A DNA stretch of 64,000 bases from Hypanus sabinus (Eukaryota): positions 186,001 through 250,000 of the forward strand of contig NW_026781355.1 of the NCBI RefSeq assembly GCF_030144855.1, read 5' to 3'. Position numbers and translations under genes: made by a program. The notes under the pieces are model-generated. The model searched no databases, had not been told where the DNA came from, and saw only the letters and a program-made list of their open reading frames with translations. Positions 1 through 47,529 of this stretch are shown here, one piece after another; position 1 is the first letter of the stretch; every line of letters starts with the position of its first letter.

Positions 1-3000
1 CCCCTATAACCAAACCCAGTCTGTCCGATGTCCCTCAGACCAAACCCAGTCTGTCTGATCTCCCCTCAGACCTAACCCCGTCTGTCCGATCTCCCCTCAG
101 ACCAAAACCAGTCTGTTCAATCTCCTTTCAGACCAGACCCAGTCTGTCCGATCTCCCCTCAGACCAAACCCAGTCTGTTTGATCTTCACTCAGACCAAAC
201 CCAGTCTGTCTGATCTTCACTCAAACCAAACCCAGTCTGTCCGATGTCCCTCAGACCAAACCCAGTCAGTTCGACCTCTACTCAGTCCAAACCCAGTCTG
301 TCCGATCTCCCCTCAGACCAAACCCAGTCTGTCTGATCTTCACTCAGACCAAACCCAGTCTGTCTGATCTTCACTCAGACCAAACCCAGTCTGTCCGATC
401 TCTCCTCAGACCAAACCCAGTCTGTCCGATCTCCCCTCAGACCAAACCCAGTCTGTCCAATGTCCCTCAGTCCAAACCCAGTCTGTCCGATCTCCTCACA
501 GACCAAACCCAGTCTGTCTGATCTCCCCTCAGACCAAACCCAGTCTGTCCGATCTTCACTCAGACCAAACCCCGTCTGTCCGATTTCCCCTCAGATCAAA
601 CCCAGTCTGTTCAATCTCCTTTCAGACCAGACCCAGTCTGTCCGATCTCCCCTCAGACCAAACCCAGTCTGTCTGATCTTCACTCAGATGAAACACAGTC
701 TGTCTGATCTTCACTCAGACCAAACCCAGTCTGTCCGATCTCTCCTCAGACCAAACCCAGTCTGTCAGATCTCCCTGCAGACCAAACCCAGTCTGTCCGA
801 TCTCCCCTCAGACCAAACCCAGTCTGTCCGATGTCCCTCAGACCAAACCCAGTCTGTCCGATCTCCCCTCAGACCAAACCCAGTCTGTCCAATGTCCCTC
901 AGTCCAAACCCAGTCTGTCCGATCTCCCCTCAGTCCAAACCCAGTCTGTCCGATCTCCCCTCAGACCAAAGCCAGTCTGTCTGATCTCCCCTCAGAACAA
1001 ACCCTGTCTGTCCGATCTCCCCTATAACCAAACCCAGTCTGTCCGATGTCCCTCAGACCAAACCCAGTCAGTTCGACCTCTACTCAGTCCAAACCCAGTC
1101 TGTCCGATCTCTCCTCAGACCAAACGCAGTATGTCCGATCTCCCCTCAGACCAAACCCCGTCTGTCCGATCTCCCCTCAGACCAAACCCAGTCTGTCCGA
1201 TGTCCCTCAGACCAAACCCAGTCTGTCCGATCTCCTCCCAGACCAAACCCAGTGTGTCTGATCTCCCCTCAGACCAAACCCAATCTGTCCAATCTCCCCT
1301 CAGACCAAACCCAGTCTGTCCGATCTCCCCTCAGGCCAAACCCAGTCTGTCCGATCTCCTCACAGACCAAACCCAGTCTGTCCGATCTCCCCTCAGGCCA
1401 AACCCAGTCTGTCCGATCTCCTCACAGACCAAACCCAGTCTGTCTGATCTCCCCTCAGAACAAACCTAGTCTGTCCGATTTCCCCTCAGACCAAACCCAG
1501 TCTGTCTGATCTCCCCTCAGACCAAACCCAGTCTGTCCGATCTTCACTCAGACCAAACCCCGTCTGTCCGATTTCCCCTCAGATCAAACCCAGTCTGTTC
1601 AATCTCCTTTCAGACCAGACCCAGTCTGTCCGATCTCCCCTCAGACCAAACCCAGTCTGTCTGATCTTCACTCAGATGAAACACAGTCTGTCTGATCTTC
1701 ACTCAGACCAAACCCAGTCTGTCCGATCTCTCCTCAGACCAAACCCAGTCTGTCAGATCTCCCTGCAGACCAAACCCAGTCTGTCCGATCTCCCCTCAGA
1801 CTAAACCCTGTCTGTCCGATCTCCCCTCAGACCAAACCCAGTCTGTCCGATGTCCCTCAGACCAAACCCAGTCTGTCCGATCTCCCCTCAGACCAAACCC
1901 AGTCTGTCCAATGTCCCTCAGTCCAAACCCAGTCTGTCCGATCTCCTCACAGACCAAACCCAGTCTGTCTGATCTCCCCTCAGAACAAACCTAGTCTGTC
2001 CGATTTCCCCTCAGACCAAACCCAGTCTGTCTGATCTCCTCTCAGACTAAACCCATTCTGTCCAATCTCCCCTCAGACCTAACCCAGTCTGTCCGATCTC
2101 CCCTCAGTCCAAACCCAGTCTGTCCGATCTCCCCTCAGACCAAAGCCAGTCTATCTGATCTCCCCTCAGAACAAACCCTGTCTGTCCGATCTCCCCTATA
2201 ACCAAACCCAGTCTGTCCGATGTCCCTCAGACCAAACCCAGTCAGTTCGATCTCTACTCAGTCCAAACCCAGTCTGTCCGATCTCCCCTCAGACCAAACC
2301 CAGTCTGTCTGATCTTCACTCAGACCAAACCCAGTCTGTCTGATCTTCACTCAGACCAAACCCAGTCTGTCCGATCTCTCCTCAGACCAAACGCAGTATG
2401 TCCGATCTCCCCTCAGACCAAACTCCGTCTGTCCGATCTCCCCTCAGACTAAACCCCATCTGTCCGATCTCCCCTCAGACCAAACCCAGTCTGTCTGATG
2501 TCCCTCAGACCAAACCCAGTCTGTCCGATCTCCCCTCAGACCAAACCCAGTCTGTCCGATGTCCCCTCAGACCAAAGCCAGTCTGTCTGATCTCCCCTCA
2601 GAACAAACCCAGTCTGTCCGATCTCCCCTATGACCAAACCCAGTCTGTCCGATGTCCCTCAGACCAAACCCAGTCTGTCTGATCTCCCCTCAGAACAAAC
2701 CCAGTCTGTCCGATCTCCCCTCAGACCAAACCCAGTCTGTCTGATCTCCCCTCAGACCAAACCCAGTCTGTCCGATCTCCTGTCAGAACAAACCCAGTCT
2801 GTCCGATCTCTCCTCAGAACAAACCCAGTCTGTCCGATCTCCCCTCAGACCAAACCAAGTCTGTCCGATCTCCCCTCAGACCAAACCCAGCCTTTGTGAT
2901 CTCTCCACAGTCTCTCATCAGAACAAACTCACTCTCTGAAAACACCTCAGTCACTCCAGAAAACAAAGACAGTCTCTGTCTGATCTCCCCTCAGAACAAA

Positions 3001-6000
3001 CCTACTCGGTCCAATCTCCCCTCAGACCAAACCCCGTCTGTCCGATCTCCCCTCAGACCAAACCCAGTCTGTCCGATGTCCCTCAGACCAAACCCAGTCT
3101 GTCCGATCTCCTCCCAGACCAAACCCAGTGTGTCTGATCTCCCCTCAGACCAAACCCAATCTGTCCAATCTCCCCTCAGACCAAACCCAGTCTGTCCGAT
3201 CTCCCCTCAGGCCAAACCCAGTCTGTCCGATCTCCTCACAGACCAAACCCAGTCTGTCTGATCTCACCTCAGAACAAACCTAGTCTGTCCGATTTCCCCT
3301 CAGACCAAACCCAGTCTGTCTGATCTCCCCTCAGACCAAACCCAGTCTGTCCGATCTTCACTCAGACCAAACCCCGTCTGTCCGATTTCCCCTCAGATCA
3401 AACCCAGTCTGTCTGATCTTCACTCAGACGAAACACAGTCTGTCTGATCTTCACTCAGACCAAACCCAGTCTGTCCGATCTCTCCTCAGACCAAACCCAG
3501 TCTGTCAGATCTCCCTGCAGACCAAACCCAGTCTGTCCGATCTCCCCTCAGACTAAACCCTGTCTGTCCGATCTCCCCTCAGACCAAACCCAGTCTGTCC
3601 GATGTCCCTCAGACCAAACCCAGTCTGTCCGATCTCCCCTCAGACCAAACCCAGTCTGTCCAATGTCCCTCAGTCCAAACCCAGTCTGTCCGATCTCCCC
3701 TCAGTCCAAACCCAGTCTGTCCGATCTCCCCTCAGACCAAAGCCAGTCTGTCTGATCTCCCCTCAGAACAAACCCTGTCTGTCCGATCTCCCCTATAACC
3801 AAACCCAGTCTGTCCGATGTCCCTCAGACCAAACCCAGTCAGTTCGATCTCTACTCAGTCCAAACCCAGTCTGTCCGATCTCCCCTCAGACCAAACCCAG
3901 TCTGTCTGATCTTCACTCAGACCAAACCCAGTCTGTCTGATCTTCACTCAGACCAAACCCAGTCTGTCCGATCTCTCCTCAGACCAAACGCAGTATGTCC
4001 GATCTCCCCTCAGACCAAACCCCGTCTGTCCGATCTCCCCTCAGACCAAACCCAGTCTGTCCGATGTCCCTCAGACCAAACCCAGTCTGTCCGATCTCCT
4101 CCCAGACCAAACCCAGTGTGTCTGATCTCCCCTCAGACCAAACCCAATCTGTCCAATCTCCCCTCAGACCAAACCCAGTCTGTCCGATCTCCCCTCAGGC
4201 CAAACCCAGTCTGTCCGATCTCCTCACAGACCAAACCCAGTCTGTCCGATCTCCCCTCAGGCCAAACCCAGTCTGTCCGATCTCCTCACAGACCAAACCC
4301 AGTCTGTCTGATCTCCCCTCAGAACAAACCTAGTCTGTCCGATTTCCCCTCAGACCAAACCCAGTCTGTCTGATCTCCCCTCAGACCAAACCCAGTCTGT
4401 CCGATCTTCACTCAGACCAAACCCCGTCTGTCCGATTTCCCCTCAGATCAAACCCAGTCTGTTCAATCTCCTTTCAGACCAGACCCAGTCTGTCCGATCT
4501 CCCCTCAGACCAAACCCAGTCTGTCTGATCTTCACTCAGATGAAACACAGTCTGTCTGATCTTCACTCAGACCAAACCCAGTCTGTCCGATCTCTCCTCA
4601 GACCAAACCCAGTCTGTCAGATCTCCCTGCAGACCAAACCCAGTCTGTCCGATCTCCCCTCAGACTAAACCCTGTCTGTCCGATCTCCCCTCAGACCAAA
4701 CCCAGTCTGTCCGATGTCCCTCAGACCAAACCCAGTCTGTCCGATCTCCCCTCAGACCAAACCCAGTCTGTCCAATGTCCCTCAGTCCAAACCCAGTCTG
4801 TCCGATCTCCTCACAGACCAAACCCAGTCTGTCTGATCTCCCCTCAGAACAAACCTAGTCTGTCCGATTTCCCCTCAGACCAAACCCAGTCTGTCTGATC
4901 TCCTCTCAGACTAAACCCATTCTGTCCAATCTCCCCTCAGACCTAACCCAGTCTGTCCGATCTCCCCTCAGTCCAAACCCAGTCTGTCCGATCTCCCCTC
5001 AGACCAAAGCCAGTCTATCTGATCTCCCCTCAGAACAAACCCTGTCTGTCCGATCTCCCCTATAACCAAACCCAGTCTGTCCGATGTCCCTCAGACCAAA
5101 CCCAGTCAGTTCGATCTCTACTCAGTCCAAACCCAGTCTGTCCGATCTCCCCTCAGACCAAACCCAGTCTGTCTGATCTTCACTCAGACCAAACCCAGTC
5201 TGTCTGATCTTCACTCAGACCAAACCCAGTCTGTCCGATCTCTCCTCAGACCAAACGCAGTATGTCCGATCTCCCCTCAGACCAAACTCCGTCTGTCCGA
5301 TCTCCCCTCAGACTAAACCCCATCTGTCCGATCTCCCCTCAGACCAAACCCAGTCTGTCTGATGTCCCTCAGACCAAACCCAGTCTGTCCGATCTCCCCT
5401 CAGACCAAACCCAGTCTGTCCGATGTCCCCTCAGACCAAAGCCAGTCTGTCTGATCTCCCCTCAGAACAAACCCAGTCTGTCCGATCTCCCCTATGACCA
5501 AACCCAGTCTGTCCGATGTCCCTCAGACCAAACCCAGTCTGTCTGATCTCCCCTCAGAACAAACCCAGTCTGTCCGATCTCCCCTCAGACCAAACCCAGT
5601 CTGTCTGATCTCCCCTCAGACCAAACCCAGTCTGTCCGATCTCCTGTCAGAACAAACCCAGTCTGTCCGATCTCTCCTCAGAACAAACCCAGTCTGTCCG
5701 ATCTCCCCTCAGACCAAACCAAGTCTGTCCGATCTCCCCTCAGACCAAACCCAGCCTTTGTGATCTCTCCACAGTCTCTCATCAGAACAAACTCACTCTC
5801 TGAAAACACCTCAGTCACTCCAGAAAACAAAGACAGTCTCTGTCTGATCTCCCCTCAGAACAAACCTACTCGGTCCAATCTCCCCTCAGACCAAACCCCG
5901 TCTGTCCGATCTCCCCTCAGACCAAACCCAGTCTGTCCGATGTCCCTCAGACCAAACCCAGTCTGTCCGATCTCCTCCCAGACCAAACCCAGTGTGTCTG

Positions 6001-7860
6001 ATCTCCCCTCAGACCAAACCCAATCTGTCCAATCTCCCCTCAGACCAAACCCAGTCTGTCCGATCTCCCCTCAGGCCAAACCCAGTCTGTCCGATCTCCT
6101 CACAGACCAAACCCAGTCTGTCTGATCTCCCCTCAGAACAAACCTAGTCTGTCCGATTTCCCCTCAGACCAAACCCAGTCTGTCTGATCTCCCCTCAGAC
6201 CAAACCCAGTCTGTCCGATCTTCACTCAGACCAAACCCCGTCTGTCCGATTTCCCCTCAGATCAAACCCAGTCTGTCTGATCTTCACTCAGACGAAACAC
6301 AGTCTGTCTGATCTTCACTCAGACCAAACCCAGTCTGTCCGATCTCTCCTCAGACCAAACCCAGTCTGTCAGATCTCCCTGCAGACCAAACCCAGTCTGT
6401 CCGATCTCCCCTCAGACTAAACCCTGTCTGTCCGATCTCCCCTCAGACCAAACCCAGTCTGTCCGATGTCCCTCAGACCAAACCCAGTCTGTCCGATCTC
6501 CCCTCAGACCAAACCCAGTCTGTCCAATGTCCCTCAGTCCAAACCCAGTCTGTCCGATCTCCCCTCAGTCCAAACCCAGTCTGTCCGATCTCCCCTCAGA
6601 CCAAAGCCAGTCTGTCTGATCTCCCCTCAGAACAAACCCTGTCTGTCCGATCTCCCCTATAACCAAACCCAGTCTGTCCGATGTCCCTCAGACCAAACCC
6701 AGTCAGTTCGATCTCTACTCAGTCCAAACCCAGTCTGTCCGATCTCCCCTCAGACCAAACCCAGTCTGTCTGATCTTCACTCAGACCAAACCCAGTCTGT
6801 CTGATCTTCACTCAGACCAAACCCAGTCTGTCCGATCTGTCCTCAGACCAAACGCAGTATGTCCGATCTCCCCTCAGACCAAACTCCGTCTGTCCGATCT
6901 CCCCTCAGACTAAACCCCATCTGTCCGATCTCCCCTCAGACCAAACCCAGTCTGTCTGATGTCCCTCAGACCAAACCCAGTCTGTCCGATCTCCCCTCAG
7001 ACCAAACCCAGTCTGTCCGATGTCCCCTCAGACCAAAGCCAGTCTGTCTGATCTCCCCTCAGAACAAACCCAGTCTGTCCGATCTCCCCTATGACCAAAC
7101 CCAGTCTGTCCGATGTCCCTCAGACCAAACCCAGTCTGTCCGATCTCCCCCCAGACCAAACCCAGTCTGTCCGATGTCCCTCAGACCAAACCCAGTCTGT
7201 CCGATCTCCCCTCAGACCAAACCCAGTCTGTCTGATCTCCCCTCAGACCAAACCCAGTCTGTCCGACCTCCTGTCAGAACAAACCCAGTCTGTCCGATCT
7301 CTCCTCAGAACAAACCCAGTCTGTCCGATCTCCCCTCAGACCAAACCAAGTCTGTCCGATCTCCCCTCAGACCAAACCCAGCCTTTGTGATCTCTCCACA
7401 GTCTCTCATCAGAACAAACTCCCTCTCTGAAAACACCTCAGTCACTCCAGAAAACAAAGCCAGTCTCTGTCTGATCTCCGCTCAGAACAAACCTACTCTG
7501 TCCGATCTCCTCCCAGACCAAACCCAGTGTGTCTGATCTCCCCTCAGACCAAACCCAATCTGTCCAATCTCCCCTCAGACCAAACCCAGTCTGTCTGATC
7601 TCCCCTCAGACCAAACCCAGTCTGTCCGATCTCCTCACAGACCAAACCCTGTCTGTCCGATCTCCCCTCAGACCAAACCCAGTGTGTCCGATCTCCCCTC
7701 AGACCAAACCCTGTCTGTCCGATTTTCACTCAGAGCAAACCCAGCCTTTGTGATCTCTCCACAGTCTCTCATCAGAACAAACTCACTCTCTGAAAACACC
7801 TCAGTCATTCCAGAAAACAAAGCCAGTCTCTGTCTGATCTCACCTCAGATCAAACCCAGT
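1..7860 (+). repeat. 31-bp tandem repeat array (consensus CAGACCAAACCCAGTCTGTCCGATCTCCCCT, with 30-bp variants) with higher-order structure; runs off the left edge
   Basis: Unit is directly visible throughout. Identical ORF-track entries recur 2,864 bp apart (1252/4116, 2398/5262, 2896/5760, 3602/6466). Confidence 0.97.
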
Positions 7861-8316
7861 GCGGGCGGGGTTGGGGTGGGGTGTTGGTGAATATGGAGAT
7901 AGTGATTGGCATGAATCAGCAGATGAAGCTACGATACTGTTACGATAATTACAAAACATCATTTCCCAACAAACTCCCACAAACACCCTACCATAGGGAG
8001 TCAGTGCTACTGTCTGCATGATTGGCACCCCGCATTACTCTCAGAGAGGAGGGAGCAGGACAGCAAATCAAACTCAGACTGTAACATACACCGCACTGTT
8101 CCGTGTACAGCAACTTAAAGATATTGCTGAGGATATCAGGACACGTGTGCTCAGAGACGATACTCAAGATCTTTTCCAAGCAACTAGCCATCAGAGAGAA
8201 CTTCAAGGAAAGGAGATTGATTATAATGTGTCCATCCAAATATGCACTCGTCTTTGCCGGATCTACAGTGAGATGGTGGGGAACTGAAGAACGCAATATT
8301 GACTGCTAAGGGTGTT
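7861..8316 (+). pseudogene. Extra, more diverged partial copy of the 5' part of the retroelement gag
   Basis: Colinear with ~8470-8920 (e.g. CACCCCGCATTACTCTCAGAGAGGAGGGAGCAGGACAGCAAATCAAACTCAGACTGTAACATACACC); ends at ...GGGTGTTAAC, joined to a repeat unit. Confidence 0.85.
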
Positions 8317-8457
8317 AACTCAGTCTGTCCGATCTTCAGTCAGAACAAACCCAGTCTGTCTGATCTCTCCACTGTCTCTCATCAGAACAAATTCACTCTC
8401 TGATCACACCTCTGTCACTCCAGAAAACAAAGCCAGTCTCTGTCTGATCTCACCTCA

Positions 8458-9432
8458 GTGCAAACCCAGTCCCAATGGGGGAGGGCGGGATGTGAATATG
8501 GAGGTAGTGATTGGCATGATTTAGCAGATGAAGCTACTAGATATGGTTATGATAATTATAAAATACCATTTCCTGAGGAATTCCCACCGACTCCCTACCA
8601 TAGGGGGTCAGTGCTACCGTCTGCACGATTGGCACCCCGCATTACTCTCAGAGAGGAGGGAGCAGGACAGCAAATCAAACTCAGACTGTAACATACACCA
8701 CACTGTTCGGTGTACAGCTACTTAAAGATATTGCTGAGGATATCAGGACACGTGTGCTCAGAGACGATACTCAAGATCTTTTCCAAGCAGCTCGCCATCA
8801 GAGAGAACTTCAAGGAAAGGAGATTGATTATAATGTGTCCATCCAAATATTCACTCGGCTTTGCCGGATCTACAGTGAGATGGTGGGGGCTGAAGAACGC
8901 AATATTGACTGCTAAGGGTGTTAACAGAGGGGACCCAGGCGACGCACAAGACAGATTTTACCGGAGGAGAGGGGAACATCCCACTGCATTTGCATCCCAT
9001 TTCTGGACTGTGTTCCAAGGAGTGTAGGAACAGCAGTAGAGTGCGGCCATTTAGATGGTTGTGGATACTGGCGTCTCACTATACCGTTGAATCTAAAAAG
9101 GCACTGGAAGTGTTTGATCCTTCTGAACCCACACATACTGAGGCATGGTCACTGAGGAAAATGTGTAGAGCGAGGGAAAAGGAGACACAGAGACCATCTA
9201 AACTCCCTAATGGGAAGGGAAGGTGATGTCTGTTAAAAGTCAGGCACCTGCCTGGAGAAATAAGGGTAGGGGACCCACCCTGAGGGCCTCCCTGCCACAC
9301 CATCAAGGGACAAGGAAGGGCAGCAGAAATGGAAATGGGCCAACAACAGGGAGAACTGAAGGTGGAGTAATTAAATGCTATAACTGTGGTCAAAAGGGAC
9401 ACATGAAGAGAGAATTTCCAAACCTGAGATGA
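8458..9432 (+). pseudogene. gag: gag remnant with degenerate CCHC zinc knuckle
   Basis: IKCYNCGQKGHMKREF (CX2CX4HX4C with last Cys changed to Phe); capsid-like AILTAKGVNRGDP...GEHPTAFAS; split over several frames. Confidence 0.75.
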
Positions 9433-9524
9433 GTAAGAGCAGAGCAATGTGGTTTCTTCTTGGAGGTACCAGAAAGACGGAGCCCACAAAATAACATGTT
9501 CCTCCAGCTTGTTTGTGCATGTTG

Positions 9525-9926
9525 AATGACTCACCCATATTGCCCGTGAGGAAACCAGATGGCTAGTTGGAGGCTGAATATCGAGAGGTGAATAAAGTAA
9601 CTCAGTAAACAGCCCCAACTTGTAGCAACTAACCCAGAAACTGTGGTCAAACAAAATGAAAATGCACAATTGTTCAGTTTTAAACATAAATAATGGATTT
9701 TGGTCATGGTCAAGTTTGCATTTGCTTTTCAGAGACAGCAGTAGAACGTGGACTACCCTACTACAGGGGTTCCATAATTCCCCATCTATATTTCACCAGC
9801 GCTCAGGGGAAAGGTTTAAATGGTTTTCAAAACCCGAGTGCTTGATACAGTACATAGAAGATCTATTCCTGCAGATAGAAACTAAACAGGAATATCAGCT
9901 GTTGACAGAACTGCTGCAATTATTAG
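9525..9926 (+). pseudogene. pol: Reverse transcriptase core fragment (left arm)
   Basis: PVRKPDG, LNINNGFWS, WTTLLQGFHNSPSIFHQ and QYIEDLFLQ (degenerate YxDD). Confidence 0.9.
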
Positions 9927-10346
9927 CAACACACACAAAATGCTGGAGGATCTCAGCAGGCCAGGCAGCATCTTATGGGAAAGAATACAGTCAACATTTC
10001 AGGCCTAAACCCTTCAGTGGGACTGGAGGGAAAAAGTCGGGAGGGATGAGTGGAGAAGGGAGTCACATAGGGTGCGAACTCTGCGGGAAGCAGAAATTGG
10101 GGGGAGGGAAAGATGTGCTTTGTGGTGGGATCGCATTGGAGGTGGGGGCAGTTTCAGAGAATTGTGTGCTGGACGCAGAGGCTGGTGGGGTGGTAGGTGA
10201 GGACAAGAGGAACATTATCACTGGTGGGGTGGCGGAATGATGGGGTAAGAGCAGACATGTGTGAAATTGAAGAGATGAGGTCGAGGGCAGTGTTGATGGA
10301 GGGAGAAGGGAGGCCCCTTTCTTTGGAAAAAGGAGGACATCTCCAT
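9927..10346 (-). mobile_element. Internally deleted remnant of the Penelope-like insertion (same insertion site as in the right arm)
   Basis: Reverse complement of ~15490-15606 followed by ~14520-14835. Confidence 0.85.
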
Positions 10347-10349
10347 TCA

Positions 10350-11695
10350 AAAATGAGATAGGAATGAAATAGAGAGGCTGAGAATTGGTGAAGCAATTCT
10401 CAATACAGGTTGTGAGACTGGAAGGCAGAAGGGAAAACAGATTAAGTTTATTGACTTAACAGAGGAGCAGAAAAAAGATGAAGATTTAAAAAAATAATAG
10501 AAGGTTCAGGGTCTGAAATATACAAAGAGGACAAGGGAGTCTTTGTCGAAGATAGAGTTGTCCTTCACGAAGGAAAGTTTGTGGCTCCAGAGGGAGGAAG
10601 AAACAAGAAGATCCATTGTTTCCATGATCTATGGGGACATCAGGGTGTGAAAGCACCCTGGAAAAGATCACGAAAGTGGGCTGGTGAAGGATGATGTGGA
10701 GCATTATGTCAAAAACTGCTTGATTTGTGCACAATATAATCCCAACAGACATGAGAAAAAAGGAGCCCTTTGACACACCAGGCCAGTGGAAGGGCTTTGG
10801 TCTATTTGCAGATAGGTTATGTTGGTCTCTTACCACCCACCCCAGGAGGGTACAAATATATTCTGGTAGAAATAGATACAAAGTGGGTGGAAGCTTTTCC
10901 AGCTAAAATAACCACAAAGGTCACTGCAGAAGTCTTATTGGAAAGGATATTGACTCATTGAGGATCACCCCGGAGTATTGAATCAGATCAAGGCGCACAT
11001 TTCTCAGCCCAGATAATGCAAGAAGTCATGAGACCTTTAGGGATCAAGCAGAGATTTCATATACACTGTGGACCACAGTCCAGTGGAATTGTGGAAAGGA
11101 TGAATCAAACACTAAAAAATATGATTACAAAAATGGTGCAACAACATGGAATAACGTGGCAAGTAGTTTTGCCTTATGCCTTGATGATAATAAGAAATTC
11201 AGTGGTATCTTCAATATGTTACACCCCGCAAGGGTTGAGCAGAAGGGACATTAGAGGATTAGAAGAGTTAGGATTAGATTTTCCTTGTGCCTTGATGATA
11301 ATAAGGAACTCAGTGGCATCTTCAACTGGTTATATCCCGTATAAACTCATGACCGGAAGGGATATGAAAGGCTTGGAGGAGTTGTTAGGATTAGATTTGT
11401 CAGAACCTGATATCGATGTGTTTGTGTCAGAAAAGTGGAACAACAATTGGTAGAGACAGTGGAAGAGGCCAGTTATGTGGCAGCCTACCAAATAGGAAAG
11501 AAGAAGCAACAGAGTAAAGCTGACTTTGACAAACGCATGACAAAGAGTGATGACTAGAAACACCAACCCACTCATTGTTAAATCCAAGGTTCGCAGGGCC
11601 CTATGAAATTATAGACAAAGCAAAACCTTCAGTGTACAGTGCTGACTCCTCACGATAAAAGTGGGTGGTACCATATCAACCAGCTGAAATTGGTG
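10350..11695 (+). pseudogene. pol: Integrase remnant (HHCC zinc finger, catalytic core, GPY/F C-terminus)
   Basis: FHDLWGHQGVK...VKNCLICAQYNP; LQIGYVG (first Asp lost), IESDQGAHF, PQSSGIVERMNQTLK; GPYEIIDK...GWYHINQLK. Confidence 0.92.
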
Positions 11696-12939
11696 GGGGA
11701 GAAACAGGAATGTTATCACCATCAGCACATAACAATTGATGTACATGGTAGTCCTGATTTGGGGGACTCGAGGATGGAACAACTGTTCCAAGAAGATGGG
11801 AATCTGCCCACTCAAGGAGGTGATTTTTATTTTCCACATCCTGAGAACCGGGGGAGTTCTGTCAAAAAATCAAAGGGAAAGGAAGATATGCCAGTGTTTG
11901 TCTCTCCTATCCCAAAATATAGTTGGATGAGGAAAAGTGGATGCCTTGAATCCAAAGACAACTGGAAATCTGGACTGGTTTGTCTAGAAAAACAAGTAGA
12001 AAATATGCACAAAATAATTTAAGATTTAAACTGGAAGTAAGAGTGGAGATGATCCTTAAATGTTACAGGTTTAGTTCAACATGAAGAGGATAATATACAT
12101 TGTTGCAATGTAATTAGCCATGACTGGGGCCATGGTCCATCTTGCTCCAGAGCCAGTCCAGTGGACAAATTTGTCAACAGTGATGCTGTTGCTTGGAAAA
12201 CCCTGAACAGAAACAAATCTTCCTCAACGACTCGGGGAATATGATCTAACAAAGGAAAATGGAGGAGTCAAACTTGTGCCTTTGTACTGGGTAGATGGCT
12301 TGACACACGTGGACAAAAGCCTAGGTGTTCCAGAAGATACAGTTTCTATGTAATAACATTCTAGGGGTGACATTGTTCAGTATCCCAGAGAGGGTAATCA
12401 TGAGTCAGTCTGTCGATCCAATTATTGAACAACCTTCAGGTAATGACGGCCATGGTAAGGTTACAGTTCTGTGGGATCACACTTGTGTGAATATTGAATG
12501 GGGCAATGACCTACACCAGAGGTAGTTTGACTGGGGGGGCCACCCCAAGCGTTTCACTAAGGTTGCTTCCATCATTATAAACTGCCCACGAGGGAATGTA
12601 GTACACAGGGAGAGTAGAATGGGGAAGGTGCTAAAGAACACAGAGTGGCCAGGCTCTCTCCAGGTTTTCAAAACTATTAGAAAAATACCCACAAGTGATG
12701 GAAACTACACCAGAGCCTAAATGTAGTGAGACCCAGCGTAACACAAACAGGATAGGATTAGGGTTAGGAGATCTGGGGAATTTGTCATTTTGGTACCTGG
12801 GTACCAGCACTTGCAGATAATTTTTAATCTAACTGAAATAATGGTGTCTGAATAGTGCTGACCTACAACAAAACAATTATTTACTCACCCTTATGAGAGA
12901 CAACTAAGCAGAGCGAGGTTAGGCCATTCAGGTTGTAAT

Positions 12940-13225
12940 AAAGCAGTAGATGGCAGGGGCCTCCCATCAGCTGAAACAACCCCCCTGGCTTCCCACAGAG
13001 GCAAGTGTTCTGTAAGGCTGTTACAAACATACACACTATCAGAGTGTGTGACTGGCCCTGATGGAAAACACTTTGGTGGCTAACCACAAATACCACAGCT
13101 GCCATTTCTGCTGCCTGTACACCCATGGATTTGGCCATGTTCATCCTCTACATATATGCCACACCCAGTTCTCCTCTCACCATCCTGTACTGATGAGGAG
13201 CCATCCACAAAAATTTTAAAGTAGG
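12940..13225 (-). pseudogene. pol: Second, retrovirus-type RNase H domain (right arm)
   Basis: Manual minus-strand reading gives IFVDGSSS...GCGIYVED, GVQAAEMAAV and SDSVYVCNSLTEHLPLWE across frameshifts. Confidence 0.78.
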
Positions 13226-13399
13226 ATTGTCTTTTTCCTTTGTGTCTCTGTTCTCAGTCAGTACTTTATCTGATCTGCTTCCACCCGTCCTTTTTGTTTT
13301 GATACAAATGGACCCTTGGGATCATTTGCTATCATAACTTGACATTCATGTTCACTTCCTTGGTGTACCAGGTTATCGACTAACATAAAGGTAGCGTTT

Positions 13400-14090
13400 A
13401 AACTCACTTTACACTAATATTTCTCCCTTGCAACAGCAATGTCCATCTAGCAATTCTGTTTTGGCTTACTGACCAATCGTGAATCCTTCCATCTAACAGT
13501 AAATGTATGGAGGTCTGTTCTGTCAGTATTGAAAGTGGATTAGGTCCTACTTTGTAGGTGAAATGTTGTACTGCCCAGAAAACCACTAACAAGTGTTTTT
13601 CAGATATAGTCTACCCCTTTTCTAATGGTGAGAGCATGAGTGATGCATAGGCTACTGGTGTTAACTTTCCATGCGTCTGCTGTAACAGTTCTGCTGAGAA
13701 GCTGGCATCAGTTGTAGCCACCTCCAATGAGAATGACTCATTCGGATTTGGGGTTTTTAAAGCAGGCAGAGTGGCCAATGCTTGCTTCAGATCTGTGATG
13801 GCCTGGGTGTGTTCTGATTTCCATTCCCACACCACATTCTTTTTCAGTAACTCCATTAAAGGAGCTGCCTTAATGAATTAATGAATTGATGAATCTATCA
13901 ATGTGATTCCTGCAGTAGCTTACCAGCCCCAGAAAGGACCGCAGAACTTTCAGGTCTCAGGGAATAGGCAGTTTCATAATCGATTCTACTCTTTGCTTAT
14001 CAATTTCTCTTTTTCCCAGTGTCAAGATCATTCTCATACAACGAACTTTTGTTTCATTTCCTTTGCTTTTCTAGGGTTTATCTTTAGTCC
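13400..14090 (-). pseudogene. pol: RT thumb/connection and Ty3-type RNase H-like (tether) remnant (right arm)
   Basis: GLKINPRK, IDKQRVESIMKLPIP, LLKKNVVWEWKSEH...LKQALATLPAL, PVAYASLMLSPLEK, FWAVQHF and RIARWTLLLQ. Confidence 0.9.
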
Positions 14091-15606
14091 CAATGCAAAT
14101 TGGCAGTGGCATTGGTCCCAGCTATCCCTGCCTGTTTGATGTCCACGTGAAAATGTCTGTGTTCCAAGCCTACACTGATGACTGTCCTGCACATTTCCTA
14201 TATTACATCGAAACTGCATTGGTGCTGCTTCCTGCACCCATGTTGAACTCATCAACTTCATTCATTTTGCCTCCAAGTTCCACTCTGCCCTCAAGTTCAC
14301 CTGGTCCATTTCCGACACCTCCCTTCCCTTTCTCGATCTCACTGTCACTATCTCCAAAGGAAGCTTATCCATCGATGTCTATTAGAAACCCATGAACTCT
14401 CAAAGCTACCTGGACTATACCTTATCCCACCCTGCTACTTGTAAAAATTCCATCCCATTCTCACCATTCCTCCATCTCTGCCACATCTGCTCTCAGGATG
14501 AGGCTTTTCATTATCAAATGAAGGAGATGTCCTCCTTTTTTCAAAGAAAGGGGCCTCTCTTCTCCCTCCATCAACACTGCCTTCAACCGCATCTCTTCCA
14601 TTTCACACACGTCTGCTCTAACCCCATCTTTCCGCCACCCCACCAGTGATAGTGTTCCTTTTGTCCTCACTTAACACCCCACCAGCCTCTGCGTCCAGCA
14701 CACAATTCTCCAAAACTGCCCACACCTCCAATGGGATCCCACCACCAAGCACATCTTTCCCTACCCCCAATTTCTGCTTCCCGCAGAGATCGCTCCCTAC
14801 GTGACTCCCTTCTCCACTCGTCCCACCACACTCTTCTCTCTCCTGGCACTTAACCTTGCAAGTGGAACAAGTGCTACAACTGCCCTTACACCTTCTACTT
14901 TATGACCATTCAAGGCTTAAACAGCCCTTCCAGGTGAGGCAACATTTCATCTGTGAGTCTGTTGGCGTCATATACTGTGTTCAATGATCCTGGTGTTACC
15001 TCTTGTATAATGGTGAGACCCGATGTAGATTGGGAGACCACTTCACTGAGCATTTACACTCCATCTGCCAGAACAAGTGGCATCTCTGAGTGCTGCCCAT
15101 TTTAATTCCACCTCCCGTTCCCATTCCGATATGTCAATCCACGGCCTCCTCCACTGTCGTGATGAGGCCACACTTAGGTTGGAGGAATAACACCTTATAT
15201 TCCGTTTGGGCAGCCTCCAACCTGATGGCATGAACATCGATTTCTCAAAAATTCAGTAATACCCCCCACCTTCATCCCACCCTTCACCATTCCCCATCCC
15301 TTTTTCCTTGTCTCATGTTATCTCCTTGAATACCCATCGCCTCCCCCGGTGCTCCTCCCCCACCTTTTTCTCTCTTCCATGGCCTTCTGTCTCATTCACC
15401 AGTCAACTTCCCAGCTCTTTACTTCATCCCTTCCCATCCAGGTTTCACCTGATGTTTCTCTCTCCCTCCCCCCACCTTTTAAATCTACTCCTCAGCTTTT
15501 TCCCTCCAGTCCCACTGAAGGGTTTAGGCCTGAAATGTTGACTGTATTCTTTCCCATAAGATGCTGCCTGGCCTGCTGAGTTCCTCCAGCATTTTGTGTG
15601 TGTTGC
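14091..15606 (+). mobile_element. 5'-truncated Penelope-like element (RT C-terminus, GIY-YIG endonuclease, terminal repeat) inserted in the retroelement RT
   Basis: SYLDYTLSHPATCKNSIPFS...ICSQDEAF...EMSSFFQ; GIY-YIG-like region ending ...IFRLGSLQPDGMNIDFS; 3' tail GATGCTGCCTGGCCTGCTGAGTTCCTCCAGCATTTTGTGTG. Retroelement RT frames resume on both sides. Confidence 0.87.
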
Positions 15607-16007
15607 TAATAACTGCACCAGTTCTGTCAATAGCTGATAATATTCCTGCTTAGTTTCAATCTGCAGGAATAGATCTTCTATGTACTGAATCAAGCACTCA
15701 GGTTTTGAAAACCATTTAAACCTTTCCCCTGAGCGCTGGTGAAATATAGATGGGGAATTATGGAACCCCTGTGGTAGGGTAGTCCACGTACACTGCTTGC
15801 TCTGAAAGGCAAATGCAAACTTGACCATGACCAAAACCCATTATTTATGTTTAAAACTGAACCATTGTGCAATTTCATTCTGTTTGACCACTGTTTCAGG
15901 GTTAGTTGCTACAGTTGGGGCTGTTAACCGAGTTACTTTATTCACCTCTCAATAATCAACCTCCAACTACCATCTGGTTTCCTCACGGGCAATATGGGTG
16001 AGTCATT
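15607..16007 (-). pseudogene. pol: Reverse transcriptase core (right arm)
   Basis: KFAFAFQSKQCTWTTLPQGFHNSPSIFHQ...QYIEDLFLQ...ELVQLLA. Confidence 0.92.
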
Positions 16008-16081
16008 CAACATGCACAAACAAGCTGGAGGAACTCAGCAGGTCGGGCAGCATCCATTGAAACAAGCATCCGTTGTGTTGC
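16008..16081 (-). mobile_element. 74-bp Penelope-terminal-repeat-type insertion with a 12-bp target-site duplication
   Basis: Flanked by GGGTGAGTCATT (15996-16007) and GGGTGAGTTATT (16082-16093); interrupts the RT motif NNSP|ILPVRKPDG. Confidence 0.85.
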
Positions 16082-16720
16082 GGGTGAGTTATTAGTGGAG
16101 GCTACTGGCCTCAGTACCCCTTGTTGTACCAAACTCTGTATTCCCTTACCTACATCTTCCTTTGCTTTTTTTGGAAACTCATATTGGTTCGGTGCTTTGG
16201 GGTCTGGACCTAGTATGCACACACTGCCAGCTATCTTTCCACAGTCATGCTTATGCCTTGCGAATGCCCCCAAGTTCTGTACAATAATTTGCTGCACCTT
16301 CTGATCATTGCTCATCTCCCCCGGTTTTATCCACATTTCACCCATTTTACATATTCGATCCTGATATTCTCCTGCCCGGATCTGTATGTGGTGTACGTTA
16401 TTCATGTCAATTGGCATCTGCCAAATCATACAATTAACTGGATCAAAGCAAAGCCCCACTTTGGCCAAGTAATCAGTCCCCAATATATGATCCTGCTCCC
16501 TGGGTAATTCCACCAGCACTGTTGAATGTTTCAATGCTATGTCTCCTATCCTTAATTCCAAAGTCACACTCACACGTCCCACTGGTGGATGTCTGAGAAT
16601 CCAATGAGGATAACTCTACCTTGTATCTCCCAATTTATGTTATTTACATTAGTGGTGTTGACGGTGGTTCGGGATCCTCCAGTGTCCCATAAAAAGGTAA
16701 CAGGGCGGCCTCTGACCCTA
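16082..16720 (-). pseudogene. pol: Aspartic protease and RT N-terminus (right arm only)
   Basis: RPVTFLWDTGGSRTT (DTG at ~16678-16686), DHILGTDYL, NQYEFPKKAKEDVGKGIQSLVQQGVLRPVASTNNSP. Confidence 0.9.
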
Positions 16721-16834
16721 CAACTCACTCAAGGTCTTCTGGTTTCATCCCATCTTGTATCACACCCATGTTGGTGAGACCTGACACCGTCATTCAGGCT
16801 CAGGGTACAAATCCCTGGATGGTTGTGTCTCCAC

Positions 16835-17871
16835 CATGTTATTTTGTGGGCTCCATCTTTCTGGACCCTCAAAAGACAAACTGCATTGTTCTGCTCTTTC
16901 TCGTCTCAGGTTTGGAAATCCTCCCTTCATGTGTCCCTCTTGGCCACAGTTACAGCATTTAATTACTCCACCTTCAGTTCTCCCTGTTTCTGGCTCCATT
17001 CCATTTCCTCTGCCCTTCTTTGCCCCTTGATGGTGTGGCAGGGAGGCCCTCAGGGTGGGTCCCCTACTTTCATTTCTCCAGGCATTTGCCTGACTTTTAA
17101 CAGACATCACCTTCCCATTAGGGAGTTTAGATGGTCTCTGTATCTCCTTTTCCCTCACTCTACACATTTTCCTCAGTGACCGTGCCTCAGCATGTGTGGG
17201 TTCAGAAGGATCAAACATTTCCAGTGCCTTTTTAGATTCAACGGTATAGTGAGACGCCAGTATCCACAACCGTCTAAATGGCTGCACTCTACTGCTGTTT
17301 CTACACTCCTTGGAAGACAGTCCATAAATGGGATGCAAATGCAGTGGGATGTTCCCCTCTCCTCCGGTAAAATCTGTCTTGTGCGTCGACTGGGTCCCCT
17401 CTGTTAACACCCTTAGCAGTCAATATTGCGTTCTTCAGTCCCCACCATCTCACTGTAGATCCGGCAAAGCCGAGTGCATATTTAGATGGGACACATTATA
17501 ATCAATCTCCTTTCCTTGAAGTTCTCTCTGATGGCTAGTTGCTTGGAAAAGCTCTTGAGTATCGTCTCTGAGCACACGTGTCCTGATATCCTCAGCAATA
17601 TCTTTAAGTTGCTGTACACTGAACAGTGTGGTGTATGTTACAGTCTGAGTTTGATTTGCTCCCCTGCTCCCTCCTCTCTGAGAGTAATGCGGGGTGCCAA
17701 TCGTGCAGACGGTAGCACTGACCCCCTATGGTAGGGAGTCGGTGGGAATTCCTCAGGAAATGGTATTTTATAATTATCATAACCATATCTAGTAGCTTCA
17801 TCTGCTAAATCATGCCAATCACTACCTCCATATTCACATCCCGCCCTCCCCCATTGGGACTGGGTTTGCAC
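16835..17871 (-). pseudogene. gag: gag remnant (right arm), inverted copy of 8458-9498
   Basis: Near-identical ORF-track peptides on opposite strands (8458..8691 vs 17638..17871; 8918.. vs 16790..17410); IKCCNCGQEGHM. Confidence 0.8.
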
Positions 17872-19405
17872 TGAGGTGAGATCAGACAGAGACTGGCTTT
17901 GTTTTCTGGAGTGACTGAGGTGTTTTCAGAGAGTGAGTTTGTTCTGATGAGAGACTGTGGAGAGATCACAAAGGCTGGGTTTGCTCTGAGGTGAGATCAG
18001 ACAGAGACTGGCTTTGTTTTCTGGAGTGACAGAGGTGTGATCAGAGAGTGAATTTGTTCTGATGAGAGACAGTGGAGAGATCAGACAGACTGGGTTTGTT
18101 CTGACTGAAGATCGGACAGACTGAGTTTGGTCTGAGAGGAGATCGGACGGACTGGGTTTGGTCTGACGGAGATGGGACAGACTGGGTTTGGTCTGAGGGG
18201 AGATCAGACGGACTGGGTTTGCTCTGAGAAGAGATCGGACAGACTGGGTTTGGTCTGAGGAGAGATCGGACAGACTGGGTTTGGTCTGAGGGGAGATCAG
18301 AGAGACTGGGTTTGGTCTGAGTGGAGATCGGACAGACTGGGATTGTTCTGAGAGGAGATCGGACAGACTGGGTTTAGTCTGACGGAGATGGGACAGACTG
18401 GGTTTGGTCTGAGGGGAGATTGAACAGACTGGATTTGGTCTGAGGGGAGATCGGACAGACTGAGTTTGGTCTGAGGGTAGATCGGACAGACTGGGATTGT
18501 TCTGAGAGGAGATCGGACAGACTGGGTTTAGTCTGAGGGAGATTGAACAGACTGGATTTGGTCTGAGGGGAGATCGGACAGACTGAGTTTGGTCTGAGGG
18601 GAGATCGGACAGACTGGGTTTGGTCTGAGGGGAGATCAGAGAGACTGGGTTTGGTCTGAGGGGAGATCGGACAGACTGGGTTAGGTCTGAGGGGAGATTG
18701 GACAGAATGGGTTTAGTCTGAGAGGAGATCGGACAGACTGGGTTTAGTCTGACGGAGATGGGACAGACTGGGTTTGGTCTGAGGGGAGATTGAACAGACT
18801 GGATTTGTTCTGAGGGGAGATCGGACAGACTGGGTTTGGTCTGAGGGCAGATCGGACGGACTGGGTTTGGTCTGAGGGGAGATCAGAGAGACTGGGTTTG
18901 GTCTGAGGGGAGATCGGACAGACTGGGTTAGGTCTGAGGGGAGATTGGACAGACTGGGTTTAGTCTGAGGGAGATGGGACAGACTGGGTTTGGTCTGAGG
19001 GGAGATTGAACAGACTGGATTTGGTCTGAGGGGAGATCAGACAGACTGGGTTTGGTCTGAGGGGGGATCGGATGGACTTGGTTTGCTCTGAGGAGAGATC
19101 GGACGGACTGGGTTTGGTCTGAGGGGAGATCGGACAGATTGGGTTTGGTCTGAGGGAGATCGGACAGACTGGGTTTGGTCTGAGGGGAGATCAGACAGAT
19201 TTGGTTTGATCTGAGGGGAGATCGGACAGACTGGGTTTGGTCTGAGGGAAGATCGGACAGACTGGGTTTGGTCTGAGGGAACATCGGACAGACTGGGTTT
19301 GGTCTGATGGAGATCGGACAGACTGGGTTTGGTCTGAGGGGAGATCGGACAGACTGGGTTTGGTCTGAGGGTGATTGGACAGACTTGGTTTGGTCTGAGG
19401 GAAGA
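17872..19405 (-). repeat. Inverted copy of the 31-bp array, with two degenerate boundary blocks at ~17872-18125
   Basis: AGGGGAGATCGGACAGACTGGGTTTGGTCTG units are the reverse complement of the left array. Boundary blocks match 7733-7848 and 8317-8458. Confidence 0.95.
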
Positions 19406-19619
19406 TAATGATAATGCCCAATTAGTTTCACAGCTGAAAAGATTGAACTTGCCTTTTGGGGATGTGGTAAATGAGGAAGTAGCTGGAAATATCTCCTCTT
19501 TCATTGCGGTAGGAAAAACAACACAGAACTAACAGTGACTTGGGCAGGATTATGTTACAGATTGTCTTTAACTGTCAGATATTCATCGAAATAAAGAGTT
19601 TCTTGTGTCACCGACAGAG

Positions 19620-19810
19620 ATGTACCACATCGAGCCGAGATGCACCCAGACAGGGTGCTGTCTATGGTGTTTGATAACTCTGGTCTTGTACTCACTGCAG
19701 TTTAGAAGAATGCTGGGGGGATGCAGGGAATCTCATTGAAACCTATGCAATACTGAGAGTCTTAGATAGATTGGACATGGAGAAGGTGTTTCTGATTGTG
19801 GGGAAGTCCT
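19620..19810 (+). mobile_element. CR1-type LINE 3' fragment
   Basis: TTGTACTCACTGCAGTTTAGAAGAATG...CTCATTGAAACCTAT matches the RT C-terminal region of the other CR1 copies here. Confidence 0.6.
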
Positions 19811-22189
19811 GATGATTCAGCTGTGTGCAATAACTTTAATAATAGACTGTAAAATAACAAGCCACGGGGGTGGGGGCACAAAACGAGTGAGACTGAAACT
19901 GAACACAACAGGCAACAATGTAAACTTTAGGCAGGGAGAGTGAGGACTGGGAGCAACTATTTGAGGTCAGTTCGTTCGATGAGTGAACAAGGAGTGTGGA
20001 TGGGAGCTGGGTTGAAATAGGCTGCCGGTGATGATTCTGGAACGATCGGCAGTTGAATCCTATTGGCTGGGTGGCGATGCGAGGTGCCTGAATGTGCCGG
20101 CTGGGGTTGTCAATGTGACTGAGCCTGACACTTTGATCTGCCCAAAACTTGTTGGTCACCCAGAGAAACGAGATGTTCAGTACCTCAATTGGAGGGCTGA
20201 GTCCGGTGGGGAAGCCCCTTGAACAGCCTCGAGGCCACTTAAATGACAGTGGTGGTATAATTGCTAAAGATTGGTGAACACTAATTAATGACCTGAATAT
20301 AAAGATTTTGTAGCTTCCTTGTTTGTATATATTTTTAATACGTACAAGGGTTATTTTTGAAATATAAAAAAGTGATGAAAACTTGCAAGATTTATTTATT
20401 TTATTTAAAGTTCAAAGTACATTTATTATCAAAGTTCGTGTGCAGTATTCAACCCTGAGATTTGTCTTCCACAGACAACTACAAAACAATGAAATACCGT
20501 GGAACCCTTTCAAAGAAAAAGCTCAAACACCCAACGTGCAAAAAAACAGAAGAAATTGTGGAAACAAGAAAGAAAAGCAAGCAATTAAAACACAGAATAT
20601 AAAATATCAATCTGCAGACCGCAGAGCCAGTCGGTCCTGATCAAAGTCACACAATATAGCCAAAAAAAAGTGCAACCAGAAATCAGAAGCACATCATAAC
20701 ATGAACTGCAGAGTCTCATCCACATCGATTAAACCTTGCCCAAGACCCAAGACTCCAGTATCATCCGCTGGTGGTGGTGAGAGAGAGGGAGGGAGAGAGA
20801 GAGATATAGAGGGAGAGACTGAATTTATTGATGGAGCATGGACCAGGCATTTCCCAGCCATACAGCATCACTGCCCAGCCACCCACCTGCCTGCTGGTTG
20901 TATTGTACATTCCTACTTTGAGAATAAAATGAAACTTTGAACATTGATAATAAATGTACTTTGAACGTTGAACCCTAGTCTAATCACAGGACAATTTACA
21001 AACGTTTGTACAAAGACAAATTAACTTACTAACCAGTACATCTTTGGACAATGGGAGGAAACTGGAGCTCCTGGTGGAAACCCACGTGTTCACAGTAAAG
21101 AATGTACAAACTTAAATAACTTTCTGTTTTAATGTGGTGATTATGACATAACTATGCAGTTGCGATCTCAAAAGGGTTTTGAAAATCACCTATACGTCTG
21201 CATGTGTGTGGGGTGTTTCTATTGATTATGTGAATCTGTTGATCTTCTTTGCAATTCAGTGTACAGAAGATGCTGTCAACGTTTCTGGTTAATATCAGAG
21301 AATGTACATAGTATACAACCCGAATCACTTACTCTATTCAGACATCCACAAAACAGAAGAAAACCTCCAAAGAAAGAATGAAAAACGTTAAAACCTCAAA
21401 GCTGCCTCTCCCCAGTCCCACACACAAACAGATGCAAAGTATCAACCTCCCCCCTCCCCCTCCCCACTTGTTACAGCAGGAATCATCAGATCCTCCATCA
21501 CTCACCAGGGAAACAATAGCAAATCCCCAAAGAGACCATGATCTGCAGTCCAACAAAAAACACTGTTCACTCAACAATTCCACATGCTGCAGTCTCTCTC
21601 TCTCTCTCTCACTAACAAGGGGAGATCTAGCACTGCAAGAGGGGTGATCAACAGATCGATGTTTCAACAATACGATTTGAAATGATGCTTATTCGAGCTC
21701 ACCCAACTCGAGAACCAGCAGACCCTCTCCCTACTGAGAGAGAGAGAGAGGGAGGAAGGGAGAGAGAGAGAGAGACAGAGGAAGGGAGAGAGGGAGAGTG
21801 TAGTGCAGAGGCCTTCGCCAGCCACACCCCCGACTCAATGTTTCAATCTTTTGCAACGGTTCAGTTGGTGACACTATCAAGGAACCCAGTCCACAGGAGC
21901 TGTGCAAGACCACAGCCCAAAGATACACATCGTGCAGGCCACTCCTGGAGATATCAAAAATGGGCAGTCAGCAAGCTCTGGGAGCTGGAACCCACTGCAA
22001 TGAAGAACTGCAGTTTGAGTGCAGTCGGAGATCATGGACTCCGACAGGACTCCTTCATCCTTGAAAAGGGAAAAAAGAGACTGGAATTTGAGCTCTTTTG
22101 CAGACAAGCTCAAAGAAGTCATTCTCTGGCACCATCTAAGTTCCTCTTTTTGGTTGTCACTATTGTAACCAATCTTGTAACATGAACAT

Positions 22190-45190: not shown

Positions 45191-45286
45191 AATTTCTCAC
45201 TCACTCTCTCTCTCCCTCCTCTCTCATTCAGTATCTCTCTATCTCATTCACTCACATTTTCTCTCTTTCACTCTCTTTCTCTGCAG

Positions 45287-45419
45287 ACAATTCGATGAAT
45301 GGTTGGCCAATGTCCGGTGCTGATGTGGTCTCTGCGGTGGAAGGAGCCTCCGCTGTGTTACCGTGTACTTTCACCCTCCCACCGAAAGACAGCGTCTCGT
45401 CCGGCACCGTGATCTGGTA
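45287..45419 (+). CDS. Exon 2 copy A (partial, cut by gap): N-terminal part of a V-set Ig domain
   Basis: Acceptor TTTCTCTGCAG| at 45286; reads NSMNGWPMSGADVVSAVEGASAVLPCTFTLPPKDSVSSGTVIW. Confidence 0.85.
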
Positions 45420-45571
45420 NNNNNNNNNNNNNNNNNNNNNNNNNNNNNNNNNNNNNNNNNNNNNNNNNNNNNNNNNNNNNNNNNNNNNNNNNNNNNNNNN
45501 NNNNNNNNNNNNNNNNNNNNNNNNNNNNNNNNNNNNNNNNNNNNNNNNNNNNNNNNNNNNNNNNNNNNNNN
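45420..45571. other. Assembly gap (152 N)
   Basis: Run of N. Confidence 0.99.
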
Positions 45572-45938
45572 GGTTGGACAATGTCCGGCGCTGATGAGGT
45601 CTCTGCGGTGGAAGGAGCCTCCGCCGTGTTACCGTGTACTTTCACCCTCCCACCTGATGTCGCCCTGAGCGGCTCCGTGATCTGGTACAGGGAGAAACCA
45701 GGTGCTACAACACTGGTGTTTAACTGCACATATCCCGGTTCCGGCCCCTCCGGGTGCGATACAACGACACAGGAGGCTGGAGGAGGGCGGTTCGGATTCG
45801 TGGGGAACCTCAGTCGGAGAGATGCCTCGATAATGATGGAGCGACTGAACCGGAGTGACGGTGGTCAGTATTGGTGCCGGGTGGAGCTCAATGTTGGCAA
45901 CTTTCAAACGGTGGTTCTAACAAATCTGTCTGTGAGAG
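45572..45938 (+). CDS. Exon 2 copy B: V-set Ig domain D1, Siglec-15/PILR-like
   Basis: AVLPCTF (B-strand Cys), VIWYR (C-strand Trp), RFGFVGN...DASI, DGGQYWCRVEL (F-strand Cys plus Arg); phase-1 donor AGAG|GTGAGG. Confidence 0.92.
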
Positions 45939-47455: not shown

Positions 47456-47529
47456 ATAACTGAGAATGCATGTAGTTTGCAGCACAGGTAAACAGTAAAC
47501 GGCTCAGTGCACTATCTTTGTAGAAAGCA

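Follow-up and report, generated by a model that had tools for sequence, protein, structure and literature searches.

The left part of the window (the whole stretch of 64,000 nucleotides analysed, C2488:186001-250000) holds one dead retrovirus-like LTR element on the minus strand, copy A, which is split by insert B, a partial copy of the same element and its host flank in the reverse orientation. The most probable history, to which we assign a probability of roughly 0.8, is a single template-switch insertion followed by passive amplification with a unit of about 100 kb, deletion of the centre and slippage of the arrays. The preliminary description had seen two convergent dead proviral copies here. 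Broken genes are indeed present on both arms, but they belong to a single interrupted provirus and not to separate ones. The features are as follows.

1-7744, plus strand: left 31-bp minisatellite, part of inverted insert B; the window half of an array of ~15.2 kb and ~494 units.
1089-6129, plus strand: exact internal array duplication of 2,177 bp (1089-3265 = 3953-6129), from an exact-run scan.
7745-8316, plus strand: a 115-bp unit derived from the array, with the gag 5' region in its first copy (B type).
8317-8925, plus strand: extra segment of ~610 bp, missing from the C25 copy.
8926-9498, plus strand: broken 3' portion of gag, including its CCHC zinc knuckle (PF00098, E 1.5e-6); protease and RT start deleted after it.
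9525-9925, plus strand: retroviral-type RT fragment, copy B, 92.8% identical to the right arm.
9926-10349, plus strand: remnant of the high-copy non-LTR insertion with an internal deletion, sited at the point where copy A carries it too.
10405-11700, plus strand: broken integrase, copy B, 90.9% identical to its counterpart in the outer copy, which lies upstream of the window.
11701-12932, plus strand: broken 3' ORF region in the env position, without a family match; right end of insert B.
12933-12987, no strand: RNase H stretch of 55 bp, the direct duplication flanking insert B; the other copy is C2488:177404-177458, 51/55 identical.
12933-14099, minus strand: copy A, RT end, tether (RT_RNaseH_2; PF17919, E 2e-13) and second RNase H (PF00075, E 0.054, weak), broken.
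14100-15606, no strand: high-copy non-LTR insertion, 1.5 kb, interrupting the RT of copy A; the dispersed copies read through this site without a break.
15607-16834, minus strand: broken protease and 5' portion of RT, copy A.
16835-17858, minus strand: broken gag of copy A, joined to the array and lacking a 5' LTR.
17858-18120, minus strand: a pair of 115-bp units; that on the inner side is of B type and has no counterpart in the right arm of the C25 copy.
18077-19406, minus strand: right 31-bp minisatellite, 43 units (Tandem Repeats Finder).
19407-19912, minus strand: host flank X, inverted-homologous to the DNA left of the left array; the true right limit of the inverted repeat.
37196-57357, plus strand: putative Siglec-15-like receptor gene of the ~100-kb unit, with leader, two V exons and transmembrane exon.
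About 45265-45970 (V), 49173-49580 (V) and 57235-57357 (transmembrane), plus strand: exons of this receptor gene.

In the window, Tandem Repeats Finder places 251 copies of the 31-bp repeat at 9-7744 and 43 copies in the opposite orientation at 18077-19406. With the arrays masked, three blocks are mirrored between the arms, namely 8324-9498 with 18005-16835 (93.9% identity), 9498-10036 with 16034-15496 (94.5%) and 10025-10349 with 14843-14519 (90.8%), so that about 2.0 kb is mirrored outside the arrays and the arms diverge by 6-9%. The opposite-strand arrays and these three blocks confirm the earlier observation that array and gag on the plus strand are mirrored on the minus strand. The structure had been put at 19 kb or more; the mirror is real, but the entire inverted structure spans some 28.5 kb (approximately C2488:177455-205912). 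Its left end was correctly placed outside the window; the left array starts 7.5 kb upstream, at C2488:178502. The reported presence of RT on both arms holds for the RVT_1 pieces, which were found on each, but not for 9926-10349 and 14519-15606, which are non-LTR insertion rather than retroviral RT. The broken genes were identified by six-frame reading and Pfam, and the longest open frame between the arrays is 237 codons. The apparent spacer, 10350-14518, is not neutral sequence: it consists of the left copy's integrase and 3' ORF and the right copy's RT-RNase H, which abut at 12932/12933.

Copy A is split between RNase H and integrase. It reads flank, array, gag, protease, RT, insertion, RT and RNase H as far as 12933 and resumes 21.5 kb further left; the remainder is found 8.5-11 kb upstream of the window, at C2488:175031-177490 on the minus strand, and comprises the end of RNase H, an integrase with a deletion, the 3' ORF and the sole LTR. 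Insert B, in the opposite orientation, reads flank, array, gag, RT piece, insertion piece, integrase and 3' ORF. The left junction of the insert carries a 4-nt microhomology, the right junction has two unexplained bases and no clean microhomology, and the junctions are old. The left junction is identical in all nine units aligned, of 15 that carry the insert, and the insertion therefore happened once.

The Pfam matches follow in the order PF00098, PF00078, PF17919, PF00075 and PF00665. The features that define a retrovirus-like LTR element are all present in the family, namely LTRs, a gag zinc knuckle, RT, a tether with a second RNase H, and an integrase after RNase H. Dispersed members of the family, examined at 12 loci, are 73-87% alike in their blocks; one of them (L063) has a pair of 854-bp LTRs at 97.4% identity. 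The 31-bp array is absent from all 12 of these loci. In the dispersed members RNase H leads directly into integrase, as it does at the single-copy site C25:11.2 Mb and in run X4, which joins 10404 to 12933. In these members RT also runs uninterrupted across 15607/14098, and since they continue straight through that point 14100-15606 is a later non-LTR insertion. Its presence in both arms at one site places it before the duplication. This insertion reaches a depth of 1e4-1e6 in four other runs and its relatives carry PF26215; eight of its short ORFs matched no Pfam family, and we presume it to be likely Penelope-like.

The nearest relatives of pol are found in amphibians and a turtle, and a pol relative matched the structures from Ty3, foamy virus and MLV with roughly equal scores. 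A tether with a second RNase H is the retrovirus-type layout (PMC7947760), and the order LTR-gag-protease-RT-tether-RNase H-integrase-3' ORF-LTR is shared with the lokiretroviruses and dual-RNase-H elements described there. The RT of lokiretroviruses is described as sister to that of other retroviruses and their Env as similar to a paramyxovirus fusion glycoprotein (PMC7947760). Such a fusion-protein-like Env (PF00523) was not detected for the ray element in Pfam, the PDB or the atlas, where all queries were short broken fragments. A genome search for Env gave no match, and its controls likewise gave none. The list of lokiretrovirus hosts, as it is given in PMC7947760, is without cartilaginous fishes, while the element described here is from a ray.

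The inverted pair sits in a tandem unit of about 100 kb, some 18 kb upstream of the leader exon of a receptor gene. We provisionally call the receptor 'Siglec-15-like' from its best PDB match (Siglec-15, E 2.7e-8) and from database names. Its transmembrane exon bears a lysine, and the nearest named relatives are in stingrays and mantas. A search with the V exon returned 77 matches, all of them at C25 9.72-13.50 Mb, on C2488 or on C577. An immunoglobulin or TCR cluster was considered and rejected: seven sources yielded one weak recombination-signal match, and none near the V exon. The receptor gene is non-rearranging, with no recombination signals. A thin search of titles and abstract openings found no literature on this cluster or element.

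The pair recurs in 15 of the 16 provirus-bearing sites mapped. In the 4.04 Gb of genome searched, gag identified inverted pairs approximately every 100 kb at C25 11.2-13.46 Mb and on C2488 (44 matches; 40 of 503 candidates scored); among these scored candidates, matches of at least 90% are confined to those two places and the others are at 76-81%. All 40 flank candidates scored, of 2,827, fall in the cluster. Exact 43-mer matches to the array behave in the same way, with 243 of 244 genome-wide located in one cluster and one not located. The centre of the pair is deleted in 13 units, which we refer to as standard units, a count that may include both haplotypes since several C25 units are identical in the compared blocks and the assembly has a gap at 12.94 Mb. 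At C25 12.03 and 12.31 Mb the flank, the array and an LTR end are kept and the pair is lost, and at seven sites of the cluster flank-plus-array repeats occur without a provirus. Five further C25 and C2488 regions contained no provirus parts. An Rfam scan of eight sources (134 kb) gave no matches.

A second assembled copy of the window type was found at C25:12.655-12.725 Mb. It follows the window and the DNA upstream of it in the same order at 95-99.96% identity, and probably represents the second haplotype or else a paralogue of very recent origin. Positions 8317-17671 align to it as one 9,404-bp piece at 97.3%. The left array is 15.2 kb long on C2488 as against approximately 1.5 kb (~49 units) in the C25 copy. 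The exact 2,177-bp duplication within the C2488 array may be a recent expansion or an assembly artefact.

The arms group by class and not by unit. In the gag 3' region of the standard units, A arms are 98.2% identical to one another (66 pairs) and B arms 97.2% (78 pairs), with 92.0% between A and B (156 pairs); flank X and protease show the same split. These comparisons used 29-37 rows per block, from which arms divided between two stretches of sequence or shorter than the length threshold had been dropped. Since A groups with A and B with B, the inversion preceded the amplification. This grouping, together with the breakpoints and flanks shared across units, bears out an inverted segmental duplication, one of the two interpretations offered in the preliminary description. 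A palindrome maintained by conversion was rejected, within-unit arm pairs being 90.8-94.3% identical in gag 3' (14 pairs) against 97-98% for like arms across units.

The window itself departs from this regularity. In gag its B arm is 93.2% identical to standard B arms, no higher than to A, and in both window-type copies the 5' end of gag in the A arm is of B type; the arms are therefore mosaics, and with such a mosaic history in the trees the donor of B cannot be named. Arm-to-arm conversion, named in the preliminary description as something that large palindromes promote, is supported for short transfers in the C2488 copy. The first 153 bp of the extra ~610-bp segment are 99.3% identical to the right arm of the same copy, 96.8% to that of the C25 copy and at most 92.2% to other units, and a B-type 115-bp unit has been added to the right arm. 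A transfer from arm to arm is thus the likely origin of 8317-8925, as judged from these identities. Overall the arms are not homogenised, and converted patches are short only. Inverted arms, centre deletions and arm-to-arm transfer are shared with the ampliconic palindromes of the primate X and Y chromosomes, for which spacer deletions have been described (PMC8327919). The primate arms are reported to be gene-bearing and less than 0.2% divergent (PMC8327919), whereas the ray arms are 6-9% divergent, amount to ~2 kb plus arrays, carry broken retroelement DNA only and are not homogenised.

In the history that we favour, an LTR element with a tether and second RNase H would have come to lie beside a cluster-specific unit of flank plus 31-bp array, and with loss of the 5' LTR the array would have become fused to gag; the anatomy can be read from copy A and the order of these events is what we infer. 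The non-LTR element had inserted in RT before the duplication. Synthesis would then have paused in RNase H and jumped to the other strand within the flank, using the same locus or a paralogous unit as template, copied flank, array, gag, pol and 3' ORF, and returned 55 bp early. The junctions of this step are present in the DNA and suggest its mechanism. The unit was subsequently amplified, with most copies derived from one whose centre had been deleted, as shared breakpoints and trees indicate. Judging from the two assembled copies, arrays appear still to change length and arms to swap short patches at the array/gag border. Template switching is known to yield inserted segments with microhomology (PMC9199198). 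A two-junction inverted insert, short microhomology at one junction and non-recurrent breakpoints are shared with the FoSTeS/MMBIR insertions described in that source, in comparison with which the present insert is old, is fixed in a multigene array, has a 55-bp flanking duplication and owes its proposed mechanism to the junctions.

A variant of the switching step alone, in which insert B came from an oppositely oriented paralogous unit by ectopic repair or recombination, is possible but doubtful. It is kept alive by the flank of B, which retains ~620 bp missing from the flank of A. The unit at C25:11.2 Mb and the provirus-free units are likewise undeleted, and the difference fits a later deletion in A as well as a paralogous donor. 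The variant would also suit the occurrence of units in both orientations and the near-star tree of arm classes that are 92-95% alike. Against it, B sits inside the element that it copies and spans its insertion point, for which a local switch is the simplest account, and none of the units examined is closer to B. Were the donor paralogous, the mirror would be a by-product of cluster reshuffling.

It is very unlikely that insert B is a retroposed read-through transcript with the 55-bp duplication as its target-site duplication. A direct duplication does flank B and the region is rich in non-LTR elements, but the 3' junction has no poly(A) or simple-repeat tail, and landing in its own source would be a coincidence. 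Furthermore, 55 bp is long for target duplications of the LINE type, which counts against retroposition of B.

The other interpretation in the preliminary description, a composite foldback-like unit, we regard as highly improbable. Foldback transposons such as FB, Galileo and Tetris have as their ends long inverted repeats with internal tandem repeats, flanked by target-site duplications of 8-10 bp (PMC4079207), and the inverted tandem-repeat blocks around a variable middle resemble that layout. Many copies of the present structure exist, as would be expected if it were mobile as a unit with the 31-bp arrays as long terminal inverted repeats. In this case, however, the arrays are not the ends. 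Inverted homology continues 0.5-1 kb past them, on the right for 353 bp at 90.4% and then 102 bp at 77%, to about 19912, and the 20-nt sequences just beyond the two arrays match each other as reverse complements and not as direct repeats. The arrays are thus host minisatellite and not termini, and the target-site duplications looked for at their outer ends are absent; the only direct duplication found is that of 55 bp, around the left arm alone. The 3' half of the element itself lies outside the supposed termini, and arrays occur partnerless at the seven sites noted above. Other array-gag units in the genome are indeed many, but all have the same flanks and lie within one gene cluster, in contrast to the dispersal of foldback elements (PMC4079207). 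No transposase domain of the Mutator or P type was seen among the ORFs of the structure scanned, a set that covered the short ones in part.

An assembly artefact, whether from a foldback read or from two loci or haplotypes wrongly joined, has scarcely any probability: the 372-kb contig C2488 does duplicate part of C25, and the exact 2,177-bp array duplication and the ~610-bp extra piece, both private to the C2488 copy, may be artefacts, but the junctions recur in the C25 copy, the left one in each unit aligned, and the 6-9% divergence of the arms argues, as the preliminary description had it, against a simple foldback read. A 175-bp contig in run X3, from another organism, spans 12824-12985 with six differences and no gap, the sole outside bridge among the matches listed; a contig of run X1 in the same matches covers 10153-10598. 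No sequencing run contained half of the words searched for, and none of the runs listed was of RNA.

No function is indicated for the mirror, which is ordinary genome plasticity and repeat debris rather than a new transposon. We consider it unlikely that the 31-bp minisatellite and the proviral inverted repeat act together as a recombination engine of a ray-specific Siglec-15-like cluster, with polymorphic array lengths tuning the receptors. If they did, array and inverted repeat would seed duplication, inversion and loss of units, and array lengths from less than 0.3 kb to more than 15 kb upstream of receptors could tune copy number or expression. Fish immunologists may find more of interest in the large, non-rearranging cluster of two-V-domain receptors than in the mirror itself, and so may paleovirologists in the dual-RNase-H retrovirus-like family of this ray. 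The mirror nevertheless provides a dated marker by which the cluster's duplications can be put in order and a well-resolved example of an inverted duplication decaying inside an amplifying immune-gene array, the tally of decay being deletion of the centre in 13 units, total loss in two, short exchanges between arms and a tenfold change in array length.

The Siglec-15-like receptor genes, which are non-rearranging and have two V domains, form a large cluster at G000:C25:9.72-13.50 Mb, on C2488 and on C577 of the Hypanus sabinus genome (G000). A V-exon search gave 77 matches for this cluster, many of them broken, and one database look-up returned relatives of the gene from rays only. The transmembrane exon encodes a lysine; in Siglec-15 the transmembrane lysine pairs with an activating adaptor. 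The following features lie in the window.

27741-29590, LINE with ORF1 (GDSL/OSK-like) and endonuclease frames fairly intact
37196-57357, receptor gene of the cluster
47529-47868 and 48051-48886, tandem repeats with units of 81 bp and 23 bp within the intron that separates the two V exons
49484-49505, TAT trinucleotide run in a V exon, giving six tyrosines

These tyrosines are fewer or absent in the database relatives, and both intronic repeats recur in the next unit. Over the LINE stretch, the collinear C25 copy is 99.7-99.96% identical to the window.

C25 contains an assembly gap at 12,939,737, with minus-strand units before it and plus-strand units after it. The plus-strand units at 12.94-13.5 Mb match the minus-strand units at 11.57-12.57 Mb, with identity throughout the compared blocks, as in the following pairs.

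12.94 Mb and 12.22 Mb
13.06 Mb and 11.58 Mb
13.35 Mb and 12.57 Mb

This identity reflects either an inverted duplication of very recent origin or the false duplication of a haplotype.

The inverted provirus pair has been lost from the units at G000:C25:12.03 and 12.31 Mb (L086-L089), where a flipped flank and array are joined to the 3' ORF end and LTR. A lone provirus at G000:C25:11.203-11.213 Mb (L037-L038) has RNase H contiguous with integrase, and its gag-protease piece is locally inverted. Flank and 31-bp array also form higher-order repeats that contain no provirus; these reach about 22 kb and occur at the following positions.

G000:C25:11.667-11.688, 12.42, 11.34, 12.79 and 12.92 Mb
C577:10-19 kb
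C2488:24-38 kb

One dispersed family of retrovirus-like LTR elements (L059-L070; for example L063, G000:C110:32884501-32894500) has dual RNase H and a length of about 8.6 kb. Its pol relatives are from amphibians and a turtle, and the family is possibly loki-like; its host group is absent from the host list of PMC7947760. Env was not identified in Pfam, PDB and atlas look-ups using short broken fragments as queries. The LTRs of one copy are 97.4% alike.

Inside the unit, an LTR element (L011:5710-9812; G000:C2488:255710-259812) encodes a SCAN domain and a zinc knuckle, and integrase precedes RT, a domain order that we take to be Gmr1-like. Upstream of the window's unit lies a 43/44-bp G-rich minisatellite of at least 12 kb (G000:C2488:86013-101961; L001-L002).
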